Shown here one piece after another: positions 5,880-44,564 of a DNA stretch of 64,000 bases (its first letter is position 1; each line of letters begins with the position of its first letter). The stretch is from IMG/VR virus record IMGVR_UViG_3300011989_000257, positions 320,001 to 384,000 of that record. The stretch is one strand, 5' to 3'. The notes under the pieces were generated by a model. The model worked only from the letters and a program-made list of their open reading frames with translations. It made no database searches and was not told where the DNA came from. The position numbers were made by a program, and so were the translations under genes. This DNA comes from a virus (taxonomy: Duplodnaviria > Caudoviricetes).

Positions 5880-5922
5880 AAAAAAAAAAAAGAAGCAACC
5901 ATCTCTGATTGCCTCTCTTTTT
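5880..5922 (-). terminator. Intrinsic terminator ending the virion module
   Basis: AGAGGCAATCAGAGATGGTTGCTTCT hairpin followed by a long T run. Confidence 0.7.
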
Positions 5923-5942: not shown

Positions 5943-8159
5943 TTAAGGTAACTCTCCTTCATATGTGCCATCTAGTTCACTATCTTGACCTTGCATCTGC
6001 TTTATTAAAGCACCGTTATAATAAACCTTAAACCCATTGACGTGTATCACTGCTCCTCCGCACCATTCCGTACCTTCATCATAACTTTGTACTGAGTTAG
6101 CTGATGTTCCGCCAGTATAGTTTTGGGCAGATGTTGGTGTACAATTTTGGACAGACTTGTCATAGAAAGAACGTCTATAATACACTTCCACTTGCATTGT
6201 GGCTGATTGCCCATCTATTTTGAAATCAGTCACATCATAGCCAGTGTATCTGTTATAATCCCCAGTTACCATTGGACCTTCTTCATAATCATAGTATTTA
6301 AACTTGAAACTATAAGTATGCACCACTGGCGCAGGCTCTTGTGTTACATTTATTGTCTTGCAATGATTGCCATTTGCGTCATCAATATATACATTTGCAC
6401 TTCTAGTCGAAGTTGCTCGGCTTGTTGAATTGAATTCAAGTTTACCATTAGTTGCATTCACATCAAGCCAACCATCTGCTTCATTGTTATTAATATAAAC
6501 AGTGCAATTATGACTATAAGTTGTTTCTGCTGTAGAACCAGCTGCATATCCAAGTGTTATGGATGTAGTTCCAACTTTTACGTTTGCGTCTTCACAACTA
6601 CAGAACCCTTTGCTATTAACAGTAAAGTATGCGCATCTTGAACCATCAATTTCTATTGCATAGCTTCCTGTTCTATCTACAGTAGAAGTGTTTACCTTGC
6701 TTGCAGTAATCATGCCGTTCCTAATAGAAATAGTGCCTTCTAAAATGTTGTCTCCTTCTACTCTAACAACACTAGCTCCATCTATGCAATTAGCTGTATA
6801 CGTCGCTGCTATTACATTAACTCCTGGGTCAACTGTAGCTCCAGTCACACTGAAATTAGCAGACGAGCATGTACAAGCTTGAGGGGTTGCACCATTTTGT
6901 GTTACTGTGAAATCAGCACATTTTATATTATCAAAATACAATGAATAATATCCAGTTCTAGAAGATGTTGAAGTATTTTCATTTACAGTGGCTTTTATAT
7001 TACCATTGCTTATTGAACAAGTAGGAGTTTGTATAATCTGAGCACCATCGACGTATGCAACACTTGCGTTAGATGAACAAGAACTAGTATATGTAGCAAT
7101 CAGCACAGAAGTTGCGCTAGCATTGGCTACATTAGTTTTACCAGTAACTGAGCACGTACAAGAATCTTTTCCGTTTTGATTTATTGTTACTAACGCCCCA
7201 CATTGGCTACTGCCTAAGAATACGGCGATATTCTCACTTCTTTGGCCATATGAGTCAAGATTTGATGAACAATCTCCTGTTATTGTGTAACTAGTTGAAG
7301 AATTCCTAACTATGCCAATATTACTTATAAAATTAGAACCACTAACCCTTTTGACGATAAGAGTACTATTTTCACAATTTGTTGTGTACCTCCCTAATGT
7401 AGCAGTACCCCCAGTATTAGGTACTGTTGTTGTAAGTTGTTGTTGCGATACTCCTATTTTAGCGCAAGTATCACAAGTTGCAGGAGGAGGTGTAACATAG
7501 CCATTAAGCGTTATTGAATTATTGGCTTTAACTACACCAGTGGAAGGGCTAAATGTATATCCAGCTTTTGATATACTGACATTCTTTGAGGTTGGGTCTG
7601 TTGATGTAAGAACAGCCTTTCCTCCAGATATAGTATATGAAGAGCCTCCTATGTTAACTGAAGCGCCTTCAACGTTCGAATAAACAGTAAAGGTATAATT
7701 TGTCACTGGAGTACCCGATGCTTGAACGAATTGAATGGTTTGGCTGCAACAGCCTCCCCAAGAAGCAAATTTAAAATAAACACTCTTTTGACTAGTGGTA
7801 CTGTTTCTTGCCACATCAGCCTTTATTAAACCGTTTTCAAATTTGAAGTTACTTAAGAAATCGTCACCATAATCTTTCATAGGGGTTATTTCTTCTTGTC
7901 CGCTACCACAATTATTATAGTAGCTACCAATAACGATGCTATTTCCCCCTTCGGCTGGTATTAAGCCATTACTAGAAAATCCGCACTTAACTGGCGGGCA
8001 TGCCTTCACAGTAACATTTTTTGTTATTACAGAAGAAGTTGGTGTCTCCAAATAAGAAATTGTATACACCGTATCTTCGCTATGCATTTCAAAAGTGGCT
8101 AATCCGTTCCCATCTATACTTGCTAAACCAGTGTCTGGACTAATTGACCAAGTTCCCAT
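5943..8159 (-). CDS. Putative virion adhesin/decoration protein: N-terminal module, several Cys-rich BACON-like domains and a shared C-terminal domain
   Basis: Repeated CxC...GTYxxxC...NG.I.A.V..NT....R....C....VTQ units; C-terminal ~215 aa closely match 14314..16473. Confidence 0.75.
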   Translation of the reverse strand: MGTWSISPDTGLASIDGNGLATFEMHSEDTVYTISYLETPTSSVITKNVTVKACPPVKCGFSSNGLIPAEGGNSIVIGSYYNNCGSGQEEITPMKDYGDDFLSNFKFENGLIKADVARNSTTSQKSVYFKFASWGGCCSQTIQFVQASGTPVTNYTFTVYSNVEGASVNIGGSSYTISGGKAVLTSTDPTSKNVSISKAGYTFSPSTGVVKANNSITLNGYVTPPPATCDTCAKIGVSQQQLTTTVPNTGGTATLGRYTTNCENSTLIVKRVSGSNFISNIGIVRNSSTSYTITGDCSSNLDSYGQRSENIAVFLGSSQCGALVTINQNGKDSCTCSVTGKTNVANASATSVLIATYTSSCSSNASVAYVDGAQIIQTPTCSISNGNIKATVNENTSTSSRTGYYSLYFDNIKCADFTVTQNGATPQACTCSSANFSVTGATVDPGVNVIAATYTANCIDGASVVRVEGDNILEGTISIRNGMITASKVNTSTVDRTGSYAIEIDGSRCAYFTVNSKGFCSCEDANVKVGTTSITLGYAAGSTAETTYSHNCTVYINNNEADGWLDVNATNGKLEFNSTSRATSTRSANVYIDDANGNHCKTINVTQEPAPVVHTYSFKFKYYDYEEGPMVTGDYNRYTGYDVTDFKIDGQSATMQVEVYYRRSFYDKSVQNCTPTSAQNYTGGTSANSVQSYDEGTEWCGGAVIHVNGFKVYYNGALIKQMQGQDSELDGTYEGELP
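5945..6610. repeat. Dispersed direct repeat, copy 1 (3' part of the adhesin gene)
   Basis: Highly similar to 14316..14970, including 65 identical nt (6259-6323 = 14630-14694). Confidence 0.9.
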
Positions 8160-8187
8160 ATATTATTATATTATTTAAGTTATTATT

Positions 8188-9933
8188 TTAAGGATTATCT
8201 GACTTCGGACAAGGGTTTTGTGAGTCATAATTATCATTATCTCTCTGATAGAAATAAACCTTACCTTCTGTCATCCAATCATTGCTTGTCTTGAAGCTGC
8301 AATCGCATTCTCCACCAGTAGTCGTTACTGTTACTGTTCCTATCCTTTTTTCACCAGTTGTGTTTTCGGCTACTTTATAATGGACCATTCCATGACTACA
8401 CTCTCCAGAGGTGCTTAATGTCCCTGTATATATTTCCACTGTAAATGTAATCCAGTCATCATTAGATACAATATTGAAATCTGGAGAATGATACTCTCTG
8501 CTAGCTACTGTGCTACCAGTGCCAACATTTTTGCCATATCCAAAGTATATTCCATCACCAATTGCTTCTCCGCACGCTGCGATACCACAGTCTTTACATG
8601 CCCCAGCATTACATCCATAATAGTCTCCATCATGAGGTCCAGACCACCATCCACCTCTTGGTGGGGCATAAGATTTCCAAGGTTCGCAAACTTGTTTTGA
8701 CAAGTTTGTAACTCTACCCATGTTATCCATTGTCCTATACCCAATTATAGGGTCTTCACCACCGCACTCGCCTGTCCTATATTGTGCTTCGCCTTCACAA
8801 TATATTGTACTAAAGCCATATATTGTGTTACATTCCTCTGGTGTAGGAGGCGCTTGGCAAGCTGAGTCACTTGAACAAGAATTACACCTTGCTGAAAACA
8901 CCTTCGTACATGACTCAGTTCCAAATGATACCGTAACTGGTATTTCAACCGTTATCCCATTTGTGGGTATTTCACAGCAATCCATCTCAATTCTATCAAG
9001 TGAATATGAATTTGATATATTACCCGATTCATGAGAGGTAGTAGCTGACATTCTATCATAATCAATATCACCGCAGCCATCTTTCCACACATAATTGGTA
9101 GTTATAGTTACAGAACTAATCGCTTGTACTGTTAAAGTTTGCGATGGTATATAGCAAATTTTAGACCCAGCTTCATGGACACTTTCAATCAATAGATTAG
9201 AAGGCGATGATTGGCAATTAGTTAAGCTATAACTAGATGCAGATGATGATGTTTCAATCCATTGTCCGCTACCATTCCCGTTTTGTGTTACATTTACTGT
9301 ATTACTTTTAACTGTGTTTCCTCTCCAAATTGTTGATGCATAAATGGAATCGCTCCTTTGCGAAGAAGATGAGTTTTTATCTATAGAATATGATGAACAA
9401 TTACTAATTCCACCATGTGTTAACGTCCAAGATAAATCTTCACAATTTCCATTAATAGTTTCAACGACTGTTGGTCCAACAATTGAACATGAACTGTTCA
9501 TTGACTTAGAATATCTTGTATAATTGTACGTGGTAGTAACATTTGCACTATCTCCGCAAGCATCAAGACTTGATGTTTTGCTTAATGAAATAGATATGTT
9601 ATTTAATGTTGTATATCTTATTGATAAGTCCTTCTGATTTACTTCTTGATTAGGAGCATAAGGAGTTTCAGTCGAACCCCCTGTATATGTTGAGTTAACA
9701 ACAATGCCGTCGTTATCATATCTAGCATCAGTTGGATGAATATAAGCAAGTTGTATAATAGCCCCACTAGACAATTCTCCATATGTTGGGCAATAGCTAT
9801 CGCCTTTTGAATCGTCAACAGTAAGTATACTATTATCAACACTACTATGCAAATAGTTGCCTATAAAAGATTTCAAATATCCAATTGTGATAACTTTCAA
9901 GCATTCAGTTTGTTTTTCTTGACAACATGCCAT
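8188..9933 (-). CDS. Cys-rich putative virion protein with a C-terminal BACON-like domain
   Basis: C-terminal SNDDWITFTV...YKVAENTTGEKRIGTVTVTT is a typical BACON pattern; many cysteines. Confidence 0.7.
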   Translation of the reverse strand: MACCQEKQTECLKVITIGYLKSFIGNYLHSSVDNSILTVDDSKGDSYCPTYGELSSGAIIQLAYIHPTDARYDNDGIVVNSTYTGGSTETPYAPNQEVNQKDLSIRYTTLNNISISLSKTSSLDACGDSANVTTTYNYTRYSKSMNSSCSIVGPTVVETINGNCEDLSWTLTHGGISNCSSYSIDKNSSSSQRSDSIYASTIWRGNTVKSNTVNVTQNGNGSGQWIETSSSASSYSLTNCQSSPSNLLIESVHEAGSKICYIPSQTLTVQAISSVTITTNYVWKDGCGDIDYDRMSATTSHESGNISNSYSLDRIEMDCCEIPTNGITVEIPVTVSFGTESCTKVFSARCNSCSSDSACQAPPTPEECNTIYGFSTIYCEGEAQYRTGECGGEDPIIGYRTMDNMGRVTNLSKQVCEPWKSYAPPRGGWWSGPHDGDYYGCNAGACKDCGIAACGEAIGDGIYFGYGKNVGTGSTVASREYHSPDFNIVSNDDWITFTVEIYTGTLSTSGECSHGMVHYKVAENTTGEKRIGTVTVTTTGGECDCSFKTSNDWMTEGKVYFYQRDNDNYDSQNPCPKSDNP

Positions 9934-9960
9934 AATAATATTTTTTTTATTAAATTATTT

Positions 9961-9990
9961 AATGGTGGGTAGGAGTACTACCCACCATCA
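9961..9990. terminator. Stem-loop between the tail fibre and the downstream gene
   Basis: ATGGTGGGTAG-GAGTA-CTACCCACCAT perfect inverted repeat. Confidence 0.65.
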
Positions 9991-9993
9991 TTA

Positions 9994-12900
9994 TTATTTA
10001 TTTTTTTCTTCTAGCTCCTTAATTCTTTTTTCAAGTTGGGCTATTCTATAGTCAACATTAGACATATAAGCAACTAAATTATCATTAACTTTTCTCAAAT
10101 GGGCTAATTTAAGTATCATAAGTGATGTATAGTCTACTGCAAGATTTCCATCTTCGTTGGTATATACAAGTTCGTTAAGACCAGCATCTTGTACATCTTG
10201 TGCTATAACACCATAGATTTTGCTCTTATTTTCATCATTCTTGAAATTATAACTCTTATAGTTTATATTAGCCACTCTATCCATTTCATCATCTGTGACA
10301 AGACTAATATTTTCCTTAAGATTTCTATCTGATGAATAAATCTGCTGTTGTGCTGTCACAACACCATTAACGCAAAGATTTCTATTAACTGTAACGCATT
10401 GTCCAGCTGCTGTGTCAATTGTAACAATATTACTTAAATTAACATTACCATTAGTATCTAGTGCATTTGTTGTTACTTTATTACTAGCTGTAATGTTAGT
10501 GCCGCTTATCGTATCGCCTTTTACAGTTGTGCCACTTATATTTGTGCCATTAATGCTAACACCATTAATATTAGTTCCACTTATAACTGGACTCTTTATA
10601 GTAGAGGTAGCATTAATTGTTTGTGCGCTAACATTTGTTCCACTTACAGTATCAGTAGCATATAAATTAGCAGTATTAATCCTAGTATTTGCACTAATCG
10701 TATTCGCACTTACATTATTAGCCCTAATTGCAGCAGAAGCTGTAATGTTAGTGCCACTTATAGTAGGCGAAGTAACGCTTGTTGCGCTTATTGAAGAAGC
10801 AGATGTAGCTGCAAGCGTTGTATTACCAGTAGCGGTAAGAGTTCCAGCACTTACGGTTGCGCCTTTCACAGTTGTACCACTTACAGTAGCACCGCTAACA
10901 GTGTTACTAGCGTACATATTAGTAACATGCATGTTTGGAGTTGTTTCGGCAGAAATTTTATTATCTCCACTTGTTGCATCATACCAAACGCTAAGTTTCA
11001 CATTATGGTTTGCTGCTGTACCATTATCGCTTGGATTTACTGCTTCCAAATCCTTAACAAGTTCTTTTGCTGGAATATCTGTTGTTGTTTCTGATTCGGT
11101 TCTAGAATCTGGGTCAAATGTGTACCATACCAACCTTATAACCCATTCTCCGCTTGTGTCTTGAACAACCGACGCACTCTTAAGAGCCTTATCTTTTGCC
11201 ACCTCAATAGTATTAATATCAACGCCATTTTGTTTTATAGTATAAACCGTTGCAAGGCGTGTATCAGAAGGGTTAGTATTTTTCTCAATAGTAATAGCAC
11301 TTCTGTTTAATACTTCACAAAGGCTTGCGTTAACAGTAGTAGAAGTTATGCCAGTACAATCTGGCTTAAGGTATAATTTGCCTCCTATTGTTGTGTCACC
11401 ACTGATTGTTGTATTACCACTAATATAAGTTGTACCAGTAATATTGAAGTTAGCCTTATTATTAATGGTTGTAGCAGTATTGTTAATAGTGGTGAAATTA
11501 TTGTTATTGGTTGTTCCACCTTCATTAATAGTAGTACCGCTAATATTAATAGTAGTTGCTGTAGAATTATCACAAGCCTTACCGATATTTGTAGTAGGAG
11601 CACCAATACTAGCACTTGTAGAACCCTTAACACAGAAATCCTTTGCACTTATATTAGTGTTATTGGTCGATGTGATATTAACTGTTCCACCAGTCTCATT
11701 AAGTGTGTCCTTAGCAAACACCTCAACATCGCCACCAGTTCCGCTAGCTTGGATTGTAACCTTGTTGTTAGCACCATTGGTCTCTACATTCGTATTACCA
11801 GTAGACTTAATATTCGTAGTACCATTTGTGTTGATTGCAGTGTTACCACTCTCATTTACAGTAAGGTTTCCACCATTGATGTTCTGAGTTTGTGCTGTTA
11901 TACTGATTGTACCAGCAGTACCACATTGCTGTAGATTGATAGCATTGCTCTTCACAATATATTCATTACAGAACTCGAATTCAGCAGTACCACCAGTATT
12001 GCTACACTGCTTAAGTGTATACTTATCAGTTGTTACTTCAATCTTTCCGCAAGAGTTAATTGTTGTATTGGTTTCACTTATTGAAAGATTTGTACCATTA
12101 AGATTTGTATCAGTGCTATTAATTGTGCTAGTTGCTTCTGTTACATCCAAACTAGTGCCGCTCAACGTAGTAGAAGGTGTCTTAGCTGAAATGCTTGTAG
12201 TTTCATCAAATGATAATGTTTTACCACTTGCCTTTATATCAGTTTGGTTGATAACAGTCTTACCATTACCAGCAGCGCATTCTTGAATAGTGAATGCATT
12301 TGTCTTACCACTTATTCTTCCACAAGATTCAATATCTGTGTTAGTTTCTACAACGCTAAGGCTAGTACCACTCACATATGTGCTTGGGGTCTTAGCAGAG
12401 AGTCTTGTAGCCTCAGTGATGTCAAGTGTATTACCACTCAACGTTGCTGTGGTTGCAGATGTATTTGCTGTACCGATAATGGTAGTTGCAGTTGTTGCGC
12501 TTGTATATGCACTTGTTGATGTGGTATTAGCAGTTAATGCTCTCTTATTGGTTGTATTACCGCTAAGATTAAGAGTTGTTGCGCCAGTAACATTTGTAGT
12601 ATTACCACTGATTGTAGTTGTAGCGCCGCTCATATTAAGTGTAGTAGTACCAACAACAGTAGTTGCACTACCCTTTGTAGTTCCATCACAAGCGATACCT
12701 ATGTTAGTGTTTACCTTACCATAGAAATTAGCATTTGCTTGGGAATTTATACAAGTATTGCCTGTTGAATATATGCTGTGTGCGCCAGTTGTATTTTCAG
12801 CCTTGTCAGCTAGGTTTTTTTCAGTTACATTACTTGCTTTAGTTTCAGTTGTAGTACCAGTCGTATTGACAATAACATTGCCTGTTGTATTAACTGTATA

Positions 12901-13794
12901 ACCACTCTGATTGTTCTCAGTAACTTGACCCTTGAATGTCTCTGTTGTGCTACCGCTTGTTGCCCTCGTTACATTGTTCTTATTGTCCTCGGTTACAACA
13001 CCAGTTCTTGTAATATTGGTTGCTCCAGCCGTGCTCTCAGTCTTATCAGAAAAGTTATTCTCTATAACATTGCCAGTCTTATTCTCAGTCGTTGCTCCAC
13101 TAACTGTCAAGTTTTCAGTTCCTACAATAGTAGTTCTTGTGGTAGCACTTTCATTAAGAGTTGTTATCTTATTTGTCTCGTTCGTTATCGTTGATGTTCT
13201 ATTGGTGATTGTCTCAGTCCAATTGGTGTCATTTGCTGTAACGTCAGTTGTCTTGATTGCAAGGGTATGACCAATACGTGTGCCAGTACCATCGCCATTT
13301 GCGATTGTTGTGTTACCACTAAGGTCACTCTTGTCAGTTACGGTAATTGAACTGAACGATGGGTTTGCACCAATCATCGCATAACGTGACATATCAATTG
13401 CTATACCAGCACCATCAGTCTTACCACCATCAGTTGAAGGATTAACTGGCTGACCATCTATATCAACAGCTCCGTTAATCTTGTCATACTTAGGTGTGTT
13501 CTTTGCTGCCACCTGGTTAATCTTGATTTCAATGTTTGAACGGTTGGTGTCAAGATGCACATTGTCAACGACTCCACTGTAAGGCATAACCTCTTTCTTC
13601 TCAATCCAGTCAATGATGGTTGAGTCTGAAGAGAATCTTACAACTTTGTCATCTGAGTTCTTAATTGAAAGGAATTCTTTTTTTGCGGAATTGTTCACCG
13701 CAATTTCACCCACCTCAAGTGATTGTGGGGTTGGCTGCTTATCCGCAATACTGCTATGGATATGTTGCAGCTTTTTTCTGTCTTTTGTTGCCAT
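9994..13794 (-). CDS. Tail fibre/spike with Thr/Asn/Ser-rich beta-repeats and a C-terminal intramolecular chaperone (peptidase S74)
   Basis: N-terminal P....L..GEIAVN; long SG.T.. repeats; SSDRNLKENI...GVIAQDV...VDY and a terminal coiled coil. Confidence 0.9.
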   Translation of the reverse strand: MATKDRKKLQHIHSSIADKQPTPQSLEVGEIAVNNSAKKEFLSIKNSDDKVVRFSSDSTIIDWIEKKEVMPYSGVVDNVHLDTNRSNIEIKINQVAAKNTPKYDKINGAVDIDGQPVNPSTDGGKTDGAGIAIDMSRYAMIGANPSFSSITVTDKSDLSGNTTIANGDGTGTRIGHTLAIKTTDVTANDTNWTETITNRTSTITNETNKITTLNESATTRTTIVGTENLTVSGATTENKTGNVIENNFSDKTESTAGATNITRTGVVTEDNKNNVTRATSGSTTETFKGQVTENNQSGYTVNTTGNVIVNTTGTTTETKASNVTEKNLADKAENTTGAHSIYSTGNTCINSQANANFYGKVNTNIGIACDGTTKGSATTVVGTTTLNMSGATTTISGNTTNVTGATTLNLSGNTTNKRALTANTTSTSAYTSATTATTIIGTANTSATTATLSGNTLDITEATRLSAKTPSTYVSGTSLSVVETNTDIESCGRISGKTNAFTIQECAAGNGKTVINQTDIKASGKTLSFDETTSISAKTPSTTLSGTSLDVTEATSTINSTDTNLNGTNLSISETNTTINSCGKIEVTTDKYTLKQCSNTGGTAEFEFCNEYIVKSNAINLQQCGTAGTISITAQTQNINGGNLTVNESGNTAINTNGTTNIKSTGNTNVETNGANNKVTIQASGTGGDVEVFAKDTLNETGGTVNITSTNNTNISAKDFCVKGSTSASIGAPTTNIGKACDNSTATTINISGTTINEGGTTNNNNFTTINNTATTINNKANFNITGTTYISGNTTISGDTTIGGKLYLKPDCTGITSTTVNASLCEVLNRSAITIEKNTNPSDTRLATVYTIKQNGVDINTIEVAKDKALKSASVVQDTSGEWVIRLVWYTFDPDSRTESETTTDIPAKELVKDLEAVNPSDNGTAANHNVKLSVWYDATSGDNKISAETTPNMHVTNMYASNTVSGATVSGTTVKGATVSAGTLTATGNTTLAATSASSISATSVTSPTISGTNITASAAIRANNVSANTISANTRINTANLYATDTVSGTNVSAQTINATSTIKSPVISGTNINGVSINGTNISGTTVKGDTISGTNITASNKVTTNALDTNGNVNLSNIVTIDTAAGQCVTVNRNLCVNGVVTAQQQIYSSDRNLKENISLVTDDEMDRVANINYKSYNFKNDENKSKIYGVIAQDVQDAGLNELVYTNEDGNLAVDYTSLMILKLAHLRKVNDNLVAYMSNVDYRIAQLEKRIKELEEKNK

Positions 13795-13860
13795 ATTTTA
13801 ACTAAATAGTTTATTAAAGAAAAGCAAGTAAAGACTTGCTTAAATTATTAACATTTTAAT

Positions 13861-13867
13861 ATAAATA
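13861..13867 (-). promoter_or_regulatory. Putative phage late promoter motif TATTTAT
   Basis: Upstream of the tail fibre; the same motif precedes other structural transcription units. Confidence 0.5.
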
Positions 13868-13920
13868 TTTAGTTATTGGAAAAATACCTTATATTTTGTA
13901 AGGTATATATAATTTAAAAT

Positions 13921-14238
13921 ATGGGATTTGTTTATTTAATAGGGGAAATAGATAATAATGGAAGATATAAGATAGGTTCTACTAGGGCAAAAGATGTAAA
14001 TCACAGACTGAAACAACTTCAAACGGGTAATTCCTCTGAACTGTATATAAAGGAAGCATTTGAGACTGAACAGCCTTTCAAACTTGAAAAAATGCTCCAC
14101 AATCACTTCAAATATAAGAACCTTAATGGTGAATGGTTTGAGTTATCGGAAGCCGACATAGAGGCTTTTAAGGGCATCTGTGAGGAAAAGATAAGGATTA
14201 TTGATTCGTTGAAGGATAATCCATTTTTTAAAAAATAA
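13921..14238 (+). CDS. GIY-YIG family nuclease (T5orf172/MUG113-like)
   Basis: GFVYLI...YKIGST...RLKQLQTGN...LEKMLH...GEWF. Confidence 0.9.
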   Translation: MGFVYLIGEIDNNGRYKIGSTRAKDVNHRLKQLQTGNSSELYIKEAFETEQPFKLEKMLHNHFKYKNLNGEWFELSEADIEAFKGICEEKIRIIDSLKDNPFFKK

Positions 14239-14270
14239 AAGGAGAAGCCAAGTAGGTTTCTCCTTTTTTT
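14237..14270. terminator. Bidirectional intrinsic terminator
   Basis: AAAAGGAGAAGCC-AAGTA-GGTTTCTCCTTTTTTT between convergent genes. Confidence 0.75.
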
Positions 14271-14313
14271 AATCATAAATTATGCTATAGATAATACTTC
14301 TTATTGCCATTTG

Positions 14314-16473
14314 TTAGGAGAATTCTCCTTCATATGTACCATCTAATTCACTATCGTGACCTTGCATCTGCTTTAATATAATGCCGTTATATTTTACCAT
14401 AAACCCATTGACGTGTATCAATGAACCTCCACACCATTTCGTACCTTCAAGGTAACTTTGTACTGAGTTAGCTGATGTTCCTCCAGTATAATTCTGGAAA
14501 GATGTTGGTATACAATCTTCATTATCACTACTAAAGAAAGAACGCCTATAATATACTTCAACTTGCATTGTGGTTGGTTGGCCATCCACCTCAAAATCAG
14601 TCACATCATAACCAGTGTATCTATTATAGTCCCCAGTTACCATTGGACCTTCTTCATAATCATAGTATTTAAACTTGAAACTATAAGTATGCACAGGTCC
14701 TTCTTGTGTTACCTTGATTGTCTCACAATGTCTGCCATCTATATCATCAATATATACATTAGCGCTCCTTTCAGAAGTTGCTTGACTAATTGAATTGAAT
14801 TCAAGTTTACCATTCGTAGAATTGACATCAAGCCAACCTTCTGCCTCGTTGTTATTAATGTATACTGTACAATCGTGGCTATATGTTGTATTTGCACTAG
14901 AATAAGCCGCATTGCCAAGTGTTATGGCTGTAGTACCTACTTGTACATTTGCCTCTTGACAAGTACAAGTTGATGGTGTTGCCCCTTGTTGAGTAAACGT
15001 ATACTGCGCACACTTAGTTGTGCCTACATATATTCCTATATCTTCTGTTCTAGCAGTAGTTTCTGTATTTGCAGCAACAGTACCATATACATTTCCATTG
15101 CTTACTGTCATATTAGTAATAAAGTCTCCACCGCTAACTCTCTTAGCAGTAAGTCCAGGGTCACAATCATATGCAAAACTTCCTATTAGGATATTAGTTC
15201 CACCTTCTGCTGTAGCTCCTCCACTTAACCCTTGTATATTTGCATCTTCACAAGTAGTACAAGGTTCAGCCCCAGCTTGCACAACAGTGAAATCATCAGA
15301 GCAATTACCAATAGTTGCAGTATATACTGACGTTCTCGTTGCACTAGTGTTAGGTACTGATACTTTTGCTGAAATTGTACCATTTGAGAAACTGAAATCA
15401 GTTAGGAAATCAGTACCACTCTTAATTGTTGCTGACCAAGTTCCACTACAAGTTGATGAGTATGTACCAAGGTCAACCCTTGATGTTGTCACAGCACTTG
15501 ATATCGGATTCTTATGACCAGTTGCATTACAAGTACAAGTTTCTGTTTTTGGATTTTGAGTTAATGTAAATGACTTAGTACAAATCTCAGACCCAGCTTT
15601 ACCCGTCACAGTTATTTCTGTTGCTCTAGTATTAGTTGTGCTAGTATTCTCATTTATAGATGCTTTAATAGAGCCATTGCTTGCTGATATGCTAGTTATC
15701 CAATCTGCTGGTTCTGATGCTGCAATGTTTGTAACGCATCCAGCAGTATAAGTTCCAATTTCAAAATTGTTTCTTGCAGATGAGTCTATTGTCTTGTCTC
15801 CACTTACCTTTAAGTCATTACACTTACAAACTAGAGCGCCCAATTGAGTTATTGTGAAATCTCTTGATGGGCATTCTTGGCTATTAACAATCCATCGTAT
15901 AGTGCAAGACCTAGGTTTGTTAGTTGGATTTGGCGCAACAGTATATCTAATTGTACCAAGAGCATGTTTATACTCACCAATTTTATTGACAGCATCTTGT
16001 ACAACCTTCGGCAATGATGTCAATGGTGGGTTATGCTCTGCATTACAAGGGTCAACTTGTGTAGTTACCAATCCAGCTTGATACATAAGGTTATTTGCCA
16101 CACAAGGATAAGAGCCATAGTTTGTACACATCATTGATGGGTCATCCGTATCCCAATAGTACTTATTTATTGTAATCCAAGTCGAAGCACTTTCTGGTGT
16201 GAACTGAGGTGTGCCATCTACCCACAAAAATGCACTGTCACAAGTTGCAGCTCCAGTTGATGGAACATTATCCCATTCACCTCCATCAACAATGAATTTA
16301 TTGCAAACATCTTCTTTTTTAACAATAATGGTTGTTTTTGATTCGCACATACCATTATTGTATATTACAGTATATTTGTCTTTTAAATTAATACATTCTT
16401 TATTAAATGTGACGATTCCATTGTCATTAATGTCTACACAATCATCATCTGGTATAATTTTCCAATCTCCCAT
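14314..16473 (-). CDS. Putative virion adhesin/decoration protein (paralog of 5943..8159)
   Basis: Same N-terminal module (MGDWKIIP..D.NG..TF), Cys-rich BACON-like repeats and shared C-terminal domain. Confidence 0.75.
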   Translation of the reverse strand: MGDWKIIPDDDCVDINDNGIVTFNKECINLKDKYTVIYNNGMCESKTTIIVKKEDVCNKFIVDGGEWDNVPSTGAATCDSAFLWVDGTPQFTPESASTWITINKYYWDTDDPSMMCTNYGSYPCVANNLMYQAGLVTTQVDPCNAEHNPPLTSLPKVVQDAVNKIGEYKHALGTIRYTVAPNPTNKPRSCTIRWIVNSQECPSRDFTITQLGALVCKCNDLKVSGDKTIDSSARNNFEIGTYTAGCVTNIAASEPADWITSISASNGSIKASINENTSTTNTRATEITVTGKAGSEICTKSFTLTQNPKTETCTCNATGHKNPISSAVTTSRVDLGTYSSTCSGTWSATIKSGTDFLTDFSFSNGTISAKVSVPNTSATRTSVYTATIGNCSDDFTVVQAGAEPCTTCEDANIQGLSGGATAEGGTNILIGSFAYDCDPGLTAKRVSGGDFITNMTVSNGNVYGTVAANTETTARTEDIGIYVGTTKCAQYTFTQQGATPSTCTCQEANVQVGTTAITLGNAAYSSANTTYSHDCTVYINNNEAEGWLDVNSTNGKLEFNSISQATSERSANVYIDDIDGRHCETIKVTQEGPVHTYSFKFKYYDYEEGPMVTGDYNRYTGYDVTDFEVDGQPTTMQVEVYYRRSFFSSDNEDCIPTSFQNYTGGTSANSVQSYLEGTKWCGGSLIHVNGFMVKYNGIILKQMQGHDSELDGTYEGEFS
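14316..14970. repeat. Dispersed direct repeat, copy 2
   Basis: See 5945..6610. Confidence 0.9.
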
Positions 16474-16489
16474 TATAAATTATTTTTTT

Positions 16490-18133
16490 TTAATTAGTAG
16501 GTACGTCACCTTTTGCTTGGTTTAACCTATTATCATAATCTTTAACGGAGTGCGCTATTGCATTTCCAGCCGAACCAAGCACTCTACCCATAATAGTATC
16601 AGAAGTCCAATGCCATCTTGCAATAGTTCTATTTATTGCAAATTGGTTGGCTGCTTTCATTATCTTGTCAGCTTTATTTGGCATCAACTCAATCAAAGTC
16701 AATGCTCCACTCCATATTCCGCTTGAGTGTCCAGATGGATACGAGTTCGCTGGTAAAGAGTTCTTTTGCGCTTCACAATAATCCGACTTGGTATTTCCTT
16801 GGATATATGTGTAACCAACAAAGTCACCATTGGTATTATATGTCTTATATTGATTTGATGAAACACATCCATCACCATCTTCTATACCTTTATCACATAG
16901 TTCATTCCTCCTATCATCTATTTCTGAATTCTTTTTTGCTTCTTGCTCCCAAGAACAACCAGGTCTTAATCTTCCATATTGTTTTGGGTTCACATATGGA
17001 GAAAGTAATATCTTACGGTAATCACTTCCAACATCCACCATTGCATTTATCAAATTTGGTAAATTACCAGTGTCGTTTAACCTAACGCCTATTGTGTCAG
17101 TACCGAATACTGGGTGAAAAGTGTATGTACCAACAGTCCTATTGTCACCAAATAAATGTTCATTGCAAGCCTCTTTATCAGCAATTGCTTGAACTGTCAT
17201 TTGTTTTATATTAGAGTCGCTAGAATTAAGGTTATATGTTTCGACTATATGTTCGTGAATAGTTCTATCTACCTTTGTGTTACTGTATTCTTCTTTTTCG
17301 TCTGGAATAATATTTGAAGGTCTAGATTTATATCCTGGTGCGTAAGGTCCTGGGGCAGTCGGCATAAATTCCCTTAAATCAGTATAGAACCCATTTTTAT
17401 TTATCACGTAATTCTGTATTGCGCTTTCACTCTCTAAAGATAATTGCCTATAATAATCAAGGGTTTCACTATACTTGCTTCCACCTACTTCAGTTCTCAT
17501 TGTAGAAATGTTAGGACTCATTTTGCCTCTCATTGCTGCATATATTCCAGATGCTACAAGCCTAGCAACGTTTGGGTCTGTTTTGAACTTATACCCAAAT
17601 ACATTGCTTTTGTTAGTATACCCTCCAAGTTCATATCCAGTCTTAAATATGGCAACCCTGTTACTAGGTTTCAATTCTGCAAGTTGCAGTGCGAATAACC
17701 ATCCAATAAGTGTGTCAAACGCCTTTTTCTCTGTGCCATCTTCGCCATAATAATTATATACATTTGGAAAGTTTTCTTCTTTATATAATTTAGGCAAATC
17801 CTCTTCAGTGCCACCATCAAATTGTTCCTTTGCTTCGGCATATAATTTACACAAGTAATTATATGTGTTTTCATTTGGGTTAAATGTGTGTCCAACAGCC
17901 GTTTCAAATGCTTTTATATAGTCATCACAATCAGTTGGAGTTGGTGGTGTTGGACCTGGTGGAGTAGGTGGAGTTGGTTCACTTCCAACTGTAAACATTG
18001 CACTTGCTGAACAACTTTCACTAGTATATTTCACTATGTATGTATTTCCATCTGACCCATCAAGGAAAGTTGCTTTACCAGTATTTGAATCAAATTTTAC
18101 AAAATCTGTTGGACTAATTGACCAATTTCCCAT
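16490..18133 (-). CDS. Class A acid phosphatase/PAP2-superfamily enzyme fused to the shared N-terminal module via a Pro/Thr linker
   Basis: KQYGRLRP, SYPSGHS and NRTIARWHWTSD (RX5HX3D) motifs; N-terminus MGNWSISP..D..TG.ATF. Confidence 0.85.
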   Translation of the reverse strand: MGNWSISPTDFVKFDSNTGKATFLDGSDGNTYIVKYTSESCSASAMFTVGSEPTPPTPPGPTPPTPTDCDDYIKAFETAVGHTFNPNENTYNYLCKLYAEAKEQFDGGTEEDLPKLYKEENFPNVYNYYGEDGTEKKAFDTLIGWLFALQLAELKPSNRVAIFKTGYELGGYTNKSNVFGYKFKTDPNVARLVASGIYAAMRGKMSPNISTMRTEVGGSKYSETLDYYRQLSLESESAIQNYVINKNGFYTDLREFMPTAPGPYAPGYKSRPSNIIPDEKEEYSNTKVDRTIHEHIVETYNLNSSDSNIKQMTVQAIADKEACNEHLFGDNRTVGTYTFHPVFGTDTIGVRLNDTGNLPNLINAMVDVGSDYRKILLSPYVNPKQYGRLRPGCSWEQEAKKNSEIDDRRNELCDKGIEDGDGCVSSNQYKTYNTNGDFVGYTYIQGNTKSDYCEAQKNSLPANSYPSGHSSGIWSGALTLIELMPNKADKIMKAANQFAINRTIARWHWTSDTIMGRVLGSAGNAIAHSVKDYDNRLNQAKGDVPTN

Positions 18134-18330
18134 TAATTATTCTCCTCGTATTTTAAATAAATAATTGTTGTATTGTCAGGTTTATTGATTCTGTTAACCT
18201 CAACTATCTTACCACAACTCTTTTTATTATTTTTTAATAATATATTAAATATTTTAAATAATATATTATATATAATATTATAAATATTCTTAAATATATT
18301 CATATATTTTAATAATTTTAAGTATAAATA

Positions 18331-19231: not shown

Positions 19232-20893
19232 TTATTGTATTCTAAATTGAATTTCATTTCCTATTGTGATATTAGGAGGCGTTATTATATTACAATTATG
19301 TTTTCCATCTTGACGGACTATAATGTCATCAGTACAGTTTCCAATATATATTGTGATGACATCTTCACGAGTATAATCTGTTTTTTCAACAGATAAGCCT
19401 ATAATGCCATCATCTAGCAAATCGTCATCAACCAACTTTACCCACCAAGGTAATTCAAAAAATACTTCTTTACCTTTACATTCCGTATTGGCTGATAATT
19501 GATAAGTGCCACCGCTTGCATCAAATGTTATTACATCAGCACTGAAACAATTGGTACATGTTTCTTTACATATTGTCTTATATTGGTTATAAGTAAATTC
19601 GACTATATTAGAGCATCCACTGCTAGCACATCCACCACTCTCCTTGAAAGTATAACTTATATTGCCACCACTCCAAACGCAGTCTTCAGCTTGCTTTATT
19701 GTAATACCACTTGATGGTATGTCATCATATTTAACAACAATTGTGGATTCAGAACCGCTAACACATTCGCCGCTATATGGTGGTATTGTGATGATATCTT
19801 CCCAAGTGTTTCCACTTGTGACAGCAGACGTACAATCATCATAGCATACATATGTATCATATCTCCAACGTAGTCTCACATTATCGCCATAAGATGGGAA
19901 TATGTAATTAGCAGGTAATTCTTTGCCATCCATCGTATATGCTGAAAAACTGTCCTTAACGATGCAATAACTAGTCCCAGCCGTGCATACTTGTCTGCAA
20001 TCATCTCTAGTATAGTCCCTATTACGTGTTATACTAAGTGGAATAGTTGTTGCACTACTTCCATTAATACATGATGCGTGGTCATTCCATGTATAGGATG
20101 AAACAATGTCAGACGTTATACAACATGCACTAGTTTCTTCACAATTTGGTATAGTCCAAGGTATCCTTTTACTTCTGCCATATGTAATCTTGGAGTTACA
20201 TTTGTCATCAGTATCAATCATCTTATAATCGAAATAGAAATATATTGTTCCACCACTATGTTCAACCTCAGTTATCTGTGTTCCACTAGAACCACTTGAA
20301 TCAACATATATGACATCACCTATCTCATAGCATATACCACTAGGTTTATCACAACATGTGTCTGGCATCTTGACATAAAAATCTATATCTTTTGTTTCGC
20401 TACCACATCCAATTGTTATAGCACTAGTTATCACTCTGCTATCAGCACTACAAGGCTTGTTTGTTTCGCTTGCAGTGAAGGTACATATGGCAGACCCACT
20501 AACCTTATGTCTAGTTATTTCACAATCTGCTTCATTATACTGCCAATAGGTGTAATATACGTTACTAGTACTGTCTGCGCTATATGGGATATAATATGGT
20601 GACACATACATGTCTATGAGTTCACACCAATTACTAGTTGGACATGGGTCACAATCTGTCCTAGGTAATTGGGTGATGACATATGAAATTGTTTTTCCAG
20701 ACCAATCAAATTGTCCACTATACGAGTGTTTACTACAATCACCAACGCCTATATAAATAGACTCACAAAACGTTTCCTCAACATCACCAAAACACCCACT
20801 GTCATCACCATTTACAGCAATCCAGCAAATGTTAGCATATGCACTGTCTGCCTCAACTGTCACTTTAATTGGTAATTCTGTCTTAATGTCCAT
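19232..20893 (-). CDS. Cys-rich putative virion protein with a C-terminal BACON-like domain
   Basis: ITFDASGGT...LPWWV...SVEKT...RE..ITI...IIVRQDG; very high Cys content. Confidence 0.7.
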   Translation of the reverse strand: MDIKTELPIKVTVEADSAYANICWIAVNGDDSGCFGDVEETFCESIYIGVGDCSKHSYSGQFDWSGKTISYVITQLPRTDCDPCPTSNWCELIDMYVSPYYIPYSADSTSNVYYTYWQYNEADCEITRHKVSGSAICTFTASETNKPCSADSRVITSAITIGCGSETKDIDFYVKMPDTCCDKPSGICYEIGDVIYVDSSGSSGTQITEVEHSGGTIYFYFDYKMIDTDDKCNSKITYGRSKRIPWTIPNCEETSACCITSDIVSSYTWNDHASCINGSSATTIPLSITRNRDYTRDDCRQVCTAGTSYCIVKDSFSAYTMDGKELPANYIFPSYGDNVRLRWRYDTYVCYDDCTSAVTSGNTWEDIITIPPYSGECVSGSESTIVVKYDDIPSSGITIKQAEDCVWSGGNISYTFKESGGCASSGCSNIVEFTYNQYKTICKETCTNCFSADVITFDASGGTYQLSANTECKGKEVFFELPWWVKLVDDDLLDDGIIGLSVEKTDYTREDVITIYIGNCTDDIIVRQDGKHNCNIITPPNITIGNEIQFRIQ

Positions 20894-42623: not shown

Positions 42624-44564
42624 ATGAGTACAGGATTAATAGTTTTAATTGTTTTCATCATCCTTATAATAGGATGTGTTGTTTGGTTCTTTATAAATAA
42701 TAAGAAACCAGACCCAACACCAGTACCTGATACTGGTGACACCCCTGACACAGGAGACACACCAACACCACCTACTCCAGACCCTGACCCACAGCCAGAC
42801 CCTGACACTGGTGACACACCTGACACTGGAGATACACCAACTCCTCCAGAACCAGAACCTCCTTGCATTTGTGAAAGTGAGACACATAGAATTCAAGATT
42901 CTATACCATCAGGTGTAACATCTGAGCCAATACAAGTTGGTACATATGACAATGGCAATATGTGTGAATGCACGTGGTCTGTCATAGGAGTGAAGACTGG
43001 TGAGGATTTCCTTAAGGATTTCAAATTCGAAGACGGAAAGATATTCGCCATCGTGTCAAAGACTAATGACGGTGAGGAAAGAACCACAAGATACATAACA
43101 CATCTAGAAGGTGAGAATGTATCTAAGGATGACTATTTCGATGTAACCCAGAAAAGTGGTATTGACAAGGAATTTGAGACATATGTCGATGCGTTCAAGG
43201 AATATGCTGTCATTGCTAGAAGCGGTGCAACATATAACTATCTGAAGGTGTTATATGATGAGGCAAAGAATCAGTTCAACGAGGTTGACTCTACAAATGG
43301 TGTACCACAGTTATACAAAGAGGAGAATTTCCCTAACATATATAACATATACGGCAACGATGGCACAGAAAGCAAGGGATTCATCAGTATGGTGGGATGG
43401 TTATTTGCACTTCAATTGTCAGAACTAAAGCCAAGATACAGGTCATATATGCTTAAGATTGGCTATGAACTTGGTGGGTATGACAGATATTCAAACATAT
43501 ATGGTTATAAGTTCAAGGCAGACCCTAATGTGGCAAGATTGGTTGCTTCCACACTATACAGCAGTATGAGGTCTTTGAAGAAACCTAATGTTGATGCGAT
43601 GAGGGCTGAAATTGGTGGTAGCAAATATGACCAATCTCTTGAAGTATTGAGTAAAAGCAGCAGAGATGCTGTGAGCAAGGGAGATTTCTTCATTGACTTC
43701 AGGAAGTTCCTTCCAACAGCGCCTGGTCCTTATGCTCCTGGATATACAACACGTCCTGATGAGACATTCCCAAATGAGAAGAAGGAGAGCAACAAGAACT
43801 TGTCAGTAGATGCTGCAATACACGAAATGGTTGTGCAGACATACAATATGAACAGCGTAGAATATTCTGCAAGCAGTGTGCAAGCAATTGCTGATGAGGA
43901 ATGCTGTAAGTATCACGTATTTGGCAAAGATAAGGTAATAGGTCAATACAAGTTCCATCCAGTATTTGGAAAGGAGACCATAGGCACTGAAATATCTCCT
44001 GATAAATATGTAGGGGGATTGGCTGAGCTTATGCTTTATGTTGCAAGCGCATCAAGGGGTATAATGCAGAGTGCCACTGTTAACCCTAAACAATATGGTA
44101 GATTAAGACCTGGCTGTTCTTGGCAACAAGAGGCGAAAAAGAACTCTACAACCGATGACAGAAGAAACGTATTGTGTGAGATTGACATTGAAGACAATGA
44201 TGGCTGTAAGGAGACTGCAAACTCAGTAGGATACTACAACAAGGATGGCGTTTGGGTATACACGCAAGCACAAGAGGACAAGTATTGCGAGACGAAGAAG
44301 AATTCGCTTTATGCCAACTCATATCCTTCAGGTCACTCAAGTGGTATGTGGGGCGCTGCAATGATGCTTGTTGAATTGTTCCCAGAGAAGGCTGACAAGA
44401 TTATGAAGGAGGCAAACCAGTTCGCTATCAACAGAACTATTGTAAGGTGGCACTGGACTTCAGATACAATTAACGGTAGGGTGCTTGGTGGAGCAACACA
44501 CGCTGTATGTCACGCAACAAGCGACTATGATACAATGTTAAATAAGGCTAAGAAAGAGCTTTAA
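42624..44564 (+). CDS. Membrane-anchored class A acid phosphatase/PAP2 enzyme (TM, Pro/Asp/Thr linker, BACON-like domain, catalytic domain)
   Basis: N-terminal hydrophobic helix; KQYGRLRP, SYPSGHS, NRTIVRWHWTSD; paralog of 16490..18133. Confidence 0.88.
   Translation: MSTGLIVLIVFIILIIGCVVWFFINNKKPDPTPVPDTGDTPDTGDTPTPPTPDPDPQPDPDTGDTPDTGDTPTPPEPEPPCICESETHRIQDSIPSGVTSEPIQVGTYDNGNMCECTWSVIGVKTGEDFLKDFKFEDGKIFAIVSKTNDGEERTTRYITHLEGENVSKDDYFDVTQKSGIDKEFETYVDAFKEYAVIARSGATYNYLKVLYDEAKNQFNEVDSTNGVPQLYKEENFPNIYNIYGNDGTESKGFISMVGWLFALQLSELKPRYRSYMLKIGYELGGYDRYSNIYGYKFKADPNVARLVASTLYSSMRSLKKPNVDAMRAEIGGSKYDQSLEVLSKSSRDAVSKGDFFIDFRKFLPTAPGPYAPGYTTRPDETFPNEKKESNKNLSVDAAIHEMVVQTYNMNSVEYSASSVQAIADEECCKYHVFGKDKVIGQYKFHPVFGKETIGTEISPDKYVGGLAELMLYVASASRGIMQSATVNPKQYGRLRPGCSWQQEAKKNSTTDDRRNVLCEIDIEDNDGCKETANSVGYYNKDGVWVYTQAQEDKYCETKKNSLYANSYPSGHSSGMWGAAMMLVELFPEKADKIMKEANQFAINRTIVRWHWTSDTINGRVLGGATHAVCHATSDYDTMLNKAKKEL
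42708..42862 (+). repeat. Low-complexity coding repeat, (PDTGDT)2-PTPP duplicated
   Basis: PDTGDTPDTGDTPTPP occurs twice. Confidence 0.85.

Follow-up and report, generated by a model that had tools for sequence, protein, structure and literature searches.

What is the role of a short N-terminal segment that recurs on three proteins encoded next to the tail-fibre gene of a large phage? The window analysed here is a 64,000-nt stretch of a 412,514-bp phage genome, in which the genes carrying this module adjoin the tail-fibre gene. The phage is uncultured and originates from gut or rumen. The module, of about 54 aa, is common to P0001, P0004 and P0005, all encoded on the minus strand and starting with the residues quoted in the original prediction. 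Copy 1 (7998..8159, minus strand; residues 1-54 of P0001, gene 5943-8159) was identified from the translation, HMM matches and an AlphaFold2 model, and copies 2 (16306..16473, minus strand; residues 1-56 of P0004, gene 14314-16473) and 3 (17978..18133, minus strand; residues 1-52 of P0005, gene 16490-18133) from HMM matches. Pairwise identity between the copies is weak (28-33%), and BLASTP detected the P0001 and P0004 modules as similar at E 7e-4. We then built leave-one-out HMMs from two copies each and searched 6162 six-frame ORFs of the whole genome. The third copy was always the top non-self match, aligned at residue 1, with E-values of 2.4e-5, 2.2e-3 and 6.7e-3. Since the omitted copy was recovered each time, the likeness among the modules is above chance despite the weak pairwise identity, and the N-termini named in the original prediction, which had also proposed the genome scan, do share a module. 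HMM search of the whole 412,514-bp genome gave no fourth copy.

In-frame stop codons lie 1-2 codons upstream of the ATG in all three window genes, and therefore no N-terminal extension of these proteins is possible. The predicted near-identity of the 5' ends of the 8159 and 18133 genes was confirmed, with one mismatch in the first 24 nt; codon choice is identical to a degree expected with P ~0.003 given the shared residues and local codon usage, and the same 5' sequence was found again in relatives. By direct reading, a hydrophobic h-region is absent from all three N-termini, in agreement with the prediction that none carries a signal peptide, and in contrast to the paralogous PAP2 gene at 42624.

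The bodies attached to the module were analysed next. The P0001 body (5943..7997, minus strand) consists of Cys-rich BACON-like repeats (about residues 57-608) and a 130-aa C-terminal tip (nt 5946-6335, minus strand) without a Pfam match, and the P0004 body (14314..16305, minus strand) of a BACON array and a tip paralogous to that of P0001. BACON (PF13004) scored 33.7 bits in P0004, above the Pfam cut-off of 25, and 22.1 bits in P0001, below it. The C-terminal 430 aa of the two proteins are 55% identical, and their tips share 83% nucleotide identity over 654 nt. Three different payloads had been proposed; judged from these alignments, P0001 and P0004 are paralogues and not independent payloads. 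The PAP2 body of P0005 (16490..17929, minus strand) follows a Pro/Thr-rich linker read directly at residues 53-68 (17930..17977, minus strand); it matches PF01569 with 42.2 bits against a cut-off of 27.2, and the catalytic motifs KX6RP, PSGH and RX5HX3D are readable.

The PAP2 body is found behind other N-termini as well. It is 57% identical to the paralogue encoded at 42624..44564 (plus strand), in which an N-terminal transmembrane helix replaces the module, and 92% identical to the body of P0195, in which the same PAP2 body is fused to a long structural-operon protein as its N-terminal carrier. The similarity to P0195 starts at P0005 residue 64, marking a breakpoint. Occurrence of the same body behind a membrane anchor and on a structural-operon protein indicates that the N-terminal element sets its location. 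Exchange takes place at the distal end as well: relatives of P0001 retain the N-terminal part and exchange the tip, and P0004 is 95% identical to P0010 over residues 1-316, followed by a different C-terminus.

The origin of the module was revealed by profile comparison. The module profile also matches internal repeats, about 80-96 aa long, of Bacteroidota T9SS surface proteins, and those scanned are mostly Pfam Big_2 arrays. Among them are P0043 (E 2.6e-15) and P0055 (E 6.8e-13), with eight and nine Big_2 repeats in tandem (E 2e-65 and 7.7e-74, respectively). By hhalign, module residues 3-25 were placed on columns 44-66 of the 97-column Big_2 repeat (Prob 96%, E 4.2e-9). The conserved TWS motif, at column 44 of 97, is where the module starts, and thus the first ~36 residues, corresponding to strands A-B, are missing. 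A reading of the MG start as N-myristoylation-like was rejected: in the parent repeats strand C is preceded by G-(G)-T-W, and G2-T3-W4 corresponds to it.

The AlphaFold2 model of copy 1 has five strands with pLDDT 92.5; with its 54 residues it is smaller than a complete Ig sandwich (~79 residues). Together with the Pro/Thr linker that follows the module, this confident stand-alone model indicates an independent domain. Its top structural neighbours are Big_2 domains, including Atlas clusters (TM 0.83) and the BIG2 domain of phi29 gp8 (Z 5.7). The Pfam model of Big_2 (PF02368) matched neither the full proteins (E up to 0.1) nor the isolated modules (E up to 10), nor anything else in the phage genome. 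Like Big_2, including the C-terminal BIG2 domain of phi29 gp8 (6qvk), the module has homologous sequence, strands C to G and the conserved Trp; unlike Big_2, it lacks the first ~36 residues, stays below the Pfam model and occurs as a single copy at the extreme N-terminus. These observations altogether support the conclusion, in line with the truncated Big_2-like fold of the original prediction, that we are dealing with an Ig domain of the Big_2 type in which the start codon falls immediately ahead of the third strand, so that five of about seven strands are left.

Other Ig-derived folds that lack two strands are known. Rib is an atrophied Ig domain that folds on its own (Whelan et al. 2019, PMC6936399). 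Both Rib (Z 5.4, rmsd 1.8 over 55 residues for Rib-Long) and aBig_2 (PF20578; clusters at TM 0.64-0.71) are structural neighbours of the module. In Gram-positive bacteria both are repeated in tandem along surface proteins and fold autonomously, unlike the module, in which the strand loss is made by the start codon and which is always present in single copy (107/107). The Pfam models of Rib and aBig_2 did not match the isolated modules.

Loss of strands A-B should bare part of the core, and in view of the oligomeric state usual for fibre-type proteins the truncated sandwich could self-associate through its exposed face, making dimers or trimers of the adhesins or joining the three module proteins with one another. 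We consider this quite unlikely, as there is no known need for trimerisation in BACON arrays or PAP2 enzymes and several relatives have a single module gene in the stretch seen.

The family was then extended by profile search of protein collections, from which all relatives were taken. This search gave 107 homologues with the module at their first residues; scans of IMG/VR with the module alignment and with P0005, and megablast of the region against phage records, gave no matches. In all 107 homologues the single copy starts within residues 1-6, with an MG start in 86 and an MA start in 16, and in-frame stops lie 1-5 codons upstream of the module genes in the window and in loci L001-L004. Behind the module, 102 proteins fall into at least 28 payload groups unrelated by BLAST, including BACON arrays, BspA-type LRRs, PAP2 phosphatases and small tip domains; Pfam, applied to 98 members, detected BACON in 20, LRR_5 in 2 and PAP2 in 2. 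In 291 pairs the modules are at least 60% identical and the payloads unrelated, and these pairs include modules of 98-100% identity. This comparative evidence supports the interchangeable platform that had been predicted, the module being always N-terminal and near-identical modules carrying unrelated bodies.

The smallest carriers (158-200 aa) consist of the module, a linker and one hypervariable domain of about 100 aa. This composition bears on the alternative that the Ig-like module is accessory, acting as a spacer or binding glycans weakly, and plays no part in docking, attachment being made, if at all, through other parts of the protein. The folds closest to it are indeed Big_2 and Ig domains of a generic kind, from capsid, tail and whisker proteins, and the parent repeats come from T9SS surface proteins, where they are adhesin repeats. 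Yet the smallest carriers have no other conserved part for anchoring, and the strict position at residue 1, as well as the conservation of the module against variable bodies, would be unexpected for an accessory domain. This explanation is therefore rather doubtful.

The position of the module genes is fixed as well. The order of S74 fibre, Cys-rich middle protein and module protein as the third gene was found in six loci (the window, L001, L002, L003, L004/L006 and L007), and it stays constant despite differences in length and distal sequence in each of the three proteins. In the window the first gene of this cassette is the tail fibre P0003 (9994..13794, minus strand; Peptidase_S74, E 1.5e-12), of which the N-terminal ~175 aa are conserved in L001 and L003 and the N-terminus HMM gave matches in five loci. 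The second encodes P0002 (8188..9933, minus strand), with a conserved Cys-rich N-terminal part of about 125 aa and a variable remainder. The conserved N-terminus was seen in alignments, and 18 homologues as well as HMM matches in six loci were found; its N-domain was modelled with pLDDT 78, and no fold match was obtained for it (best Z 2.2). The fibre-middle-module unit is closed by a terminator-like hairpin with a 17-pair stem followed by a T run (5885..5922, minus strand). The assignment of this part of the genome to a structural region, made in the original prediction, rests on the adjoining Peptidase_S74 tail fibre at 9994-13794; no Pfam family was found for the large neighbouring genes and no PHROGs family for ten proteins of the region, and PDB sequence searches of three neighbours were empty.

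Instead of a site on the particle, the module might address its carriers to a non-virion target, such as host membranes or vesicles, with or onto which they would be released, or an assembly chaperone that recognises them, for action in or on the infected cell. The PAP2 body is also made as a membrane-anchored paralogue for the infected cell, and a conserved 56-aa ORF (18136-18303) overlaps the P0005 start, both in favour of such an address. The proteins are, however, without signal peptide or hydrophobic stretch, the module genes lie inside the tail-fibre cassette in every locus, and hypervariability of C-terminal tips is a typical sign of receptor binding by particles, all of which make this explanation very improbable.

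As judged from sequence and gene arrangement, the module probably serves as a constant N-terminal anchor by which exchangeable adhesins and an enzyme are held on the virion, a reading to which we give a probability of roughly 0.55. It is from gene position that we infer association with the virion. The carriers would be organised in the order of module, short Cys/Pro/Thr-rich linker, zero to several BACON-like spacer domains and a variable distal payload, the latter being a receptor-binding tip, an LRR array or a PAP2 phosphatase. The module would hold them at a conserved site, presumably of the tail-fibre/baseplate complex, and recombination behind it would exchange the payloads. The phage under study might then carry two glycan-binding adhesins and one virion-borne phosphatase acting on phosphorylated envelope components. 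Retention of the N-terminal part and swapping of distal parts among close relatives (P0004/P0010; P0005/P0195) count for this anchor. Against it, the ~30% identity among the three modules appears low for one shared docking site, and the large neighbours match no baseplate or tail protein in any library. Ig-like domains on phage proteins are, in addition, often accessory and not anchoring.

A conserved N-terminal anchor with swappable distal parts is a general principle already established. Branched receptor-binding-protein systems of Klebsiella and other phages are composed of an anchor, a branching domain and a conserved docking peptide (Latka et al. 2019, PMC6872550), and this architecture was validated experimentally (PMC13352976). 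That phage receptor-binding proteins are known to combine a conserved N-terminal anchor or docking peptide with distal parts that vary (PMC6872550, PMC13352976) speaks for the anchor here. As in these systems, a conserved N-terminal element is followed by interchangeable receptor-binding or enzymatic parts, the genes adjoin the primary fibre, and recombination exchanges what lies behind the conserved element. The module differs from a short peptide and from a T7 gp17-like anchor in being a folded 54-aa truncated Ig domain; a gp10-like branching domain was not found here, and the carriers of the module are probably monomeric BACON stalks, unlike trimeric tailspikes. The module-bearing proteins are thus best read as a new variant of the known phage receptor-binding-protein architecture. 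BACON arrays beside structural genes are also shared with the tail-associated proteins and adhesins of crAss-like and other gut phages of Bacteroidota (PMC6949934; PMC13370021). In PMC13370021 the displayed proteins mediate adherence; term searches of these two papers gave no mention of the mode of particle attachment or of this N-terminal module.

With its start-codon truncation of Big_2, the module defines a domain family that no Pfam or PHROG model matches and by which about 100 protein clusters from uncultured ~400-kb phages of Bacteroidota are marked. The constant part of their adhesins is thereby set apart from the exchangeable one, and determinants of host range and mucus binding can therefore be found by sequence. 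Should the module suffice for incorporation, such particles could be loaded with adhesins or enzymes by means of this small natural tag. The family also points to a putative virion-associated PAP2 phosphatase, a payload type undiscussed in the cited receptor-binding-protein papers.

How the anchor might dock leads back to the missing strands. Chaperone-usher pilins have an Ig fold without the C-terminal G strand, which is completed by a known donor strand. The incomplete fold of the module could be completed in trans in a similar way, as the original prediction suggested, with the differences that it misses the N-terminal A-B strands and that no donor was found. The module might thus be half of a split Ig domain, to which a virion protein gives strands A-B so that payloads click in by fold complementation; if true, a jumbo phage would have a natural plug-in display system that works without covalent bonds. 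We regard it as improbable. HMMs of the A-B region, built from Big_2-type and CHU-type repeats, gave nothing below E 0.1 in six-frame ORFs of the genome. The conserved tail of the candidate partner P0207 (19232..20893, minus strand; 553 aa) had no Big_2 match in Pfam. With its ~20 residues this tail gives comparisons of little power: its chimera with the module scored 47.4 bits (rank 141 among 462 control tails), and hhalign against the Big_2 repeat gave Prob 0.1%. The HMM, chimera and hhalign searches for a donor being empty, the split-domain idea is without sequence support, and the predicted plugging into a common virion site by strand complementation finds no support here. Complex prediction of the fibre N-terminus (1-180), P0002 (1-300) and the module scored 0.02, which says nothing either way, and the Atlas feature search of P0207 stayed below 0.9.

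If the Ig domain is split, P0207 would be the best donor lead, because a homologue is fused to the same PAP2 body in a relative and its amphipathic tail of about 20 aa is conserved. The last 22 residues (nt 19235-19300, minus strand) are kept down to homologues of 56% identity. The fused homologue is the N-terminal 720 aa of P0195, which is weakly similar to P0207 (23% over 411 aa, E 2e-8), and the relative with P0195 shows no module gene within the stretch seen. The second lead would be the 56-aa ORF at the start of P0005.

The viral genome is one record of 412,514 bp with 34.5% G+C, judged complete by CheckV, and the window covers its bases 320001-384000. The region of interest carries five co-directional genes, all on the minus strand, for P0005 (16490-18133, 547 aa), P0004 (14314-16473, 719 aa), P0003 (9994-13794, 1266 aa), P0002 (8188-9933, 581 aa) and P0001 (5943-8159, 738 aa), and a terminator-like hairpin (5885-5922) follows P0001. 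A Peptidase_S74 chaperone domain (E 1.5e-12) closes P0003, which is therefore a tail fibre or spike. P0001, P0004 and P0005 all start with MG-x-W-x-I-x-P and have about 54 residues in common at 28-33% identity; an in-frame stop lies one or two codons upstream of each ATG. When an HMM was built from two of these copies, the remaining copy was the top non-self match among 6162 six-frame ORFs of the whole genome (E-values 2.4e-5, 2.2e-3 and 6.7e-3), at residue 1 every time, and the original prediction of an N-terminal module common to three ORFs was thus borne out. A fourth copy is absent from the genome. As also predicted, the first 24 nt of the P0001 and P0005 genes differ at a single position; use of the same codons at their shared residues has a P of about 0.003 under local codon usage. 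The 5' sequence, ATGGGAACTTGGTCAATTA, was found again in relatives despite diverged proteins. This conservation at the nucleotide level covers the first 19-24 nt or so of the module genes (8136-8159, 16450-16473 and 18110-18133, minus strand; also in the relatives' loci L001 and L004), even where the proteins are only 37% identical, and may serve to anchor recombination or be imposed by translation initiation.

Queried with the three modules, a word-indexed search gave 18 proteins; HMMER with a profile of 13 sequences, run in full against 1.84 billion representatives (E up to 1e-3), gave 179 matches, which split into two classes. Class A comprises 107 proteins of 58-1387 aa with a single N-terminal module at residues 1-6, starting with MG in 86 and MA in 16, and with bodies forming 28 groups mutually unrelated by BLAST. 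By Pfam, 20 of the 98 scanned carry BACON, two BspA-type LRR_5 and two PAP2; in many members, only 158-300 aa long, the module and a linker rich in Pro or Cys are followed by a single small unrelated domain. In 291 class A pairs, modules at least 60% identical stand on unrelated bodies, the modules being 98-100% identical in pairs such as P0021/P0022, P0028/P0031 and P0034/P0036. Between close relatives the N-terminal part is retained and distal parts are exchanged, as with P0004 and its homologue P0010, 95% identical up to residue 316 and different beyond. In class B are about 50 large proteins, Bacteroidota surface adhesins built of tandem repeats 80-96 aa in period. Among six scanned, three contain Pfam Big_2 arrays (P0043, E 2e-65; P0055, E 7.7e-74; P0075, E 1.2e-12) and three T9SS C-terminal sorting domains (P0029, P0043 and P0055).

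The alignment of the module with the class B repeats starts at their conserved (G)TWS motif, and the preceding 36 or so repeat residues correspond to strands A-B, the first two of the full fold. By hhalign, module residues 3-25 fall on columns 44-66 of the 97-column repeat unit (Prob 96%, E 4.2e-9). As the MG start corresponds to the G-(G)-T-W ahead of strand C in the parent repeats, the gene start falls in the B-C loop. An AlphaFold2 model (pLDDT 92.5) has five strands (residues 3-7, 13-15, 21-23, 30-37 and 45-51), with structural neighbours among Big_2 clusters in Atlas (TM 0.83, rmsd 1.5 over 56 residues), the BIG2 domain of phi29 gp8 (Z 5.7, rmsd 1.7 over 54 residues), Rib-Long (Z 5.4), atrophied aBig_2 clusters (TM 0.64-0.71) and viral BIG2 proteins (E 0.04). 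Since every Z is below 8, the fold by itself is generic, and it is the sequence profile that carries the argument for Big_2. Neither the full proteins nor the isolated modules brought the module to any Pfam model. The predicted cut-down Big_2-like Ig fold is supported by the repeat alignment, hhalign and the model, the module being best read as a truncated Big_2 domain. The principle of an anchor with swappable distal parts is already known; the element itself is a single Big_2 domain truncated by its start codon. The module has no match in Pfam or PHROGs, and term searches of two BACON-phage papers (PMC6949934, PMC13370021) gave no mention of it. So far it is restricted to relatives of this phage of about 400 kb, including contigs of 408-422 kb.

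The payloads were predicted to be three different ones. The PAP2 phosphatase of P0005 is indeed distinct; its assignment is sound, with a Pfam score of 42.2 bits and catalytic motifs legible in translation. The P0001 and P0004 bodies, in contrast, are those of paralogues, with 55% identity across the C-terminal 430 aa. Their C-terminal tips (5946-6600 and 14317-14970, minus strand), which match no Pfam family, show 83% nucleotide identity over 654 nt, and the genes outside the tips are far more diverged, which looks like a recent tip exchange within the genome.

All loci for which DNA is available share one order, namely fibre (conserved N-terminus and S74), P0002-type protein and module protein, as seen in the window, L001, L003, L004/L006 and L007, and also in L002, where the contig end cuts the fibre; HMM matches confirm the whole arrangement. 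Lengths vary widely, over 851-1395 aa for the fibre, 388-1133 aa for the middle protein and 471-1387 aa for the third, each retaining its own N-terminal element across loci. Phage receptor-binding proteins characteristically combine a constant N-terminus with a variable distal part (PMC6872550, PMC13352976), and all three cassette proteins have this pattern. We consider it somewhat favoured, at a probability of roughly 0.55, that modular appendage proteins are anchored by the module at their N-terminus and that recombination behind it swaps their payloads. A T5orf172/MUG113 homing-endonuclease-like gene (13921-14238, plus strand; T5orf172 E 4e-14) sits on the opposite strand between P0004 and P0003, immediately upstream of the tail-fibre cassette, and holds the same place in L001, L003, L004, L006 and L007. 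Between close relatives the adjacent cassette has about 37% identity and is far more divergent than the genes on the other side, and in L004 and L007 a module-PAP2 and module-BACON pair is likewise found upstream of the endonuclease gene.

In what amounts to a natural swap experiment, the PAP2 body occurs behind three different N-terminal carriers. The first is the module with a Pro/Thr linker in P0005. The second, in a paralogue (42624-44564, plus strand) 57% identical to P0005 over 458 aa, is a transmembrane helix, an acidic/Pro linker and a BACON-like domain. The third is a 720-aa Cys-rich region in the homologue P0195, whose body is 92% identical to P0005 from residue 64 on. This region resembles P0207 (19232-20893, minus strand, 553 aa; 23% over 411 aa, E 2e-8), and in the relative's locus L009, P0195 closes the large structural operon in the place of P0207. 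The stretch of L009 seen contains no module gene, and a P0004-like body there has another N-terminus. It is thus the N-terminal element that sets the destination of the enzyme. L009 also has the membrane-anchored paralogue, at 94% identity and immediately behind the fused PAP2 gene.

By Rosetta-stone reasoning from the P0195 fusion, P0207 is a candidate partner for the module. Its C-terminal tail (19235-19300, minus strand; ...PPNITIGNEIQFRIQ) is amphipathic and about 20 aa long; it is conserved down to homologues 56% identical, and in L011 a tail of this type occurs with a module-bearing PAP2-like gene next door. The original prediction also raised docking by strand complementation as a possibility, which is unsupported: HMMs detected no donor of strands A-B among the genome's six-frame ORFs, and the tail has no similarity to the A-B region, a comparison of little power over only 20 residues. 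Ig domains that have lost strands, Rib among them, are stable by themselves (PMC6936399). For this low power of the sequence tests, we keep complementation as an improbable reading and do not dismiss it. A 56-aa ORF (18136-18303, minus strand), its stop overlapping the P0005 start (TAATG), is conserved; the N-terminal half of its product is hydrophobic and helix-like, the C-terminal half hairpin-like. The L011 version shares 84% identity, the ORF is also called in L004, and no Pfam family matches; the product could serve the module protein as chaperone or partner.

In the P0002 family (8188-9933, minus strand, in the window; 18 homologues), a Cys-rich N-terminal domain of about 125 aa (MACC...ECLKV.TIGYL...YCPTY) is conserved and the bodies vary; the model of this domain (pLDDT 78) gave no PDB fold match. 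A second, unrelated N-terminal module of about 42 aa (M-A-x-Y-L-K-x-F ... I-L-P-N-V-S) heads five proteins of 254-697 aa encoded outside the window, at G000:C1 124140-126230, 132915-133676, 140633-141394 and 141617-142378 (minus strand) and 231426-232457 (plus strand), so that the phage fits its variable bodies with no fewer than two different constant N-terminal elements.
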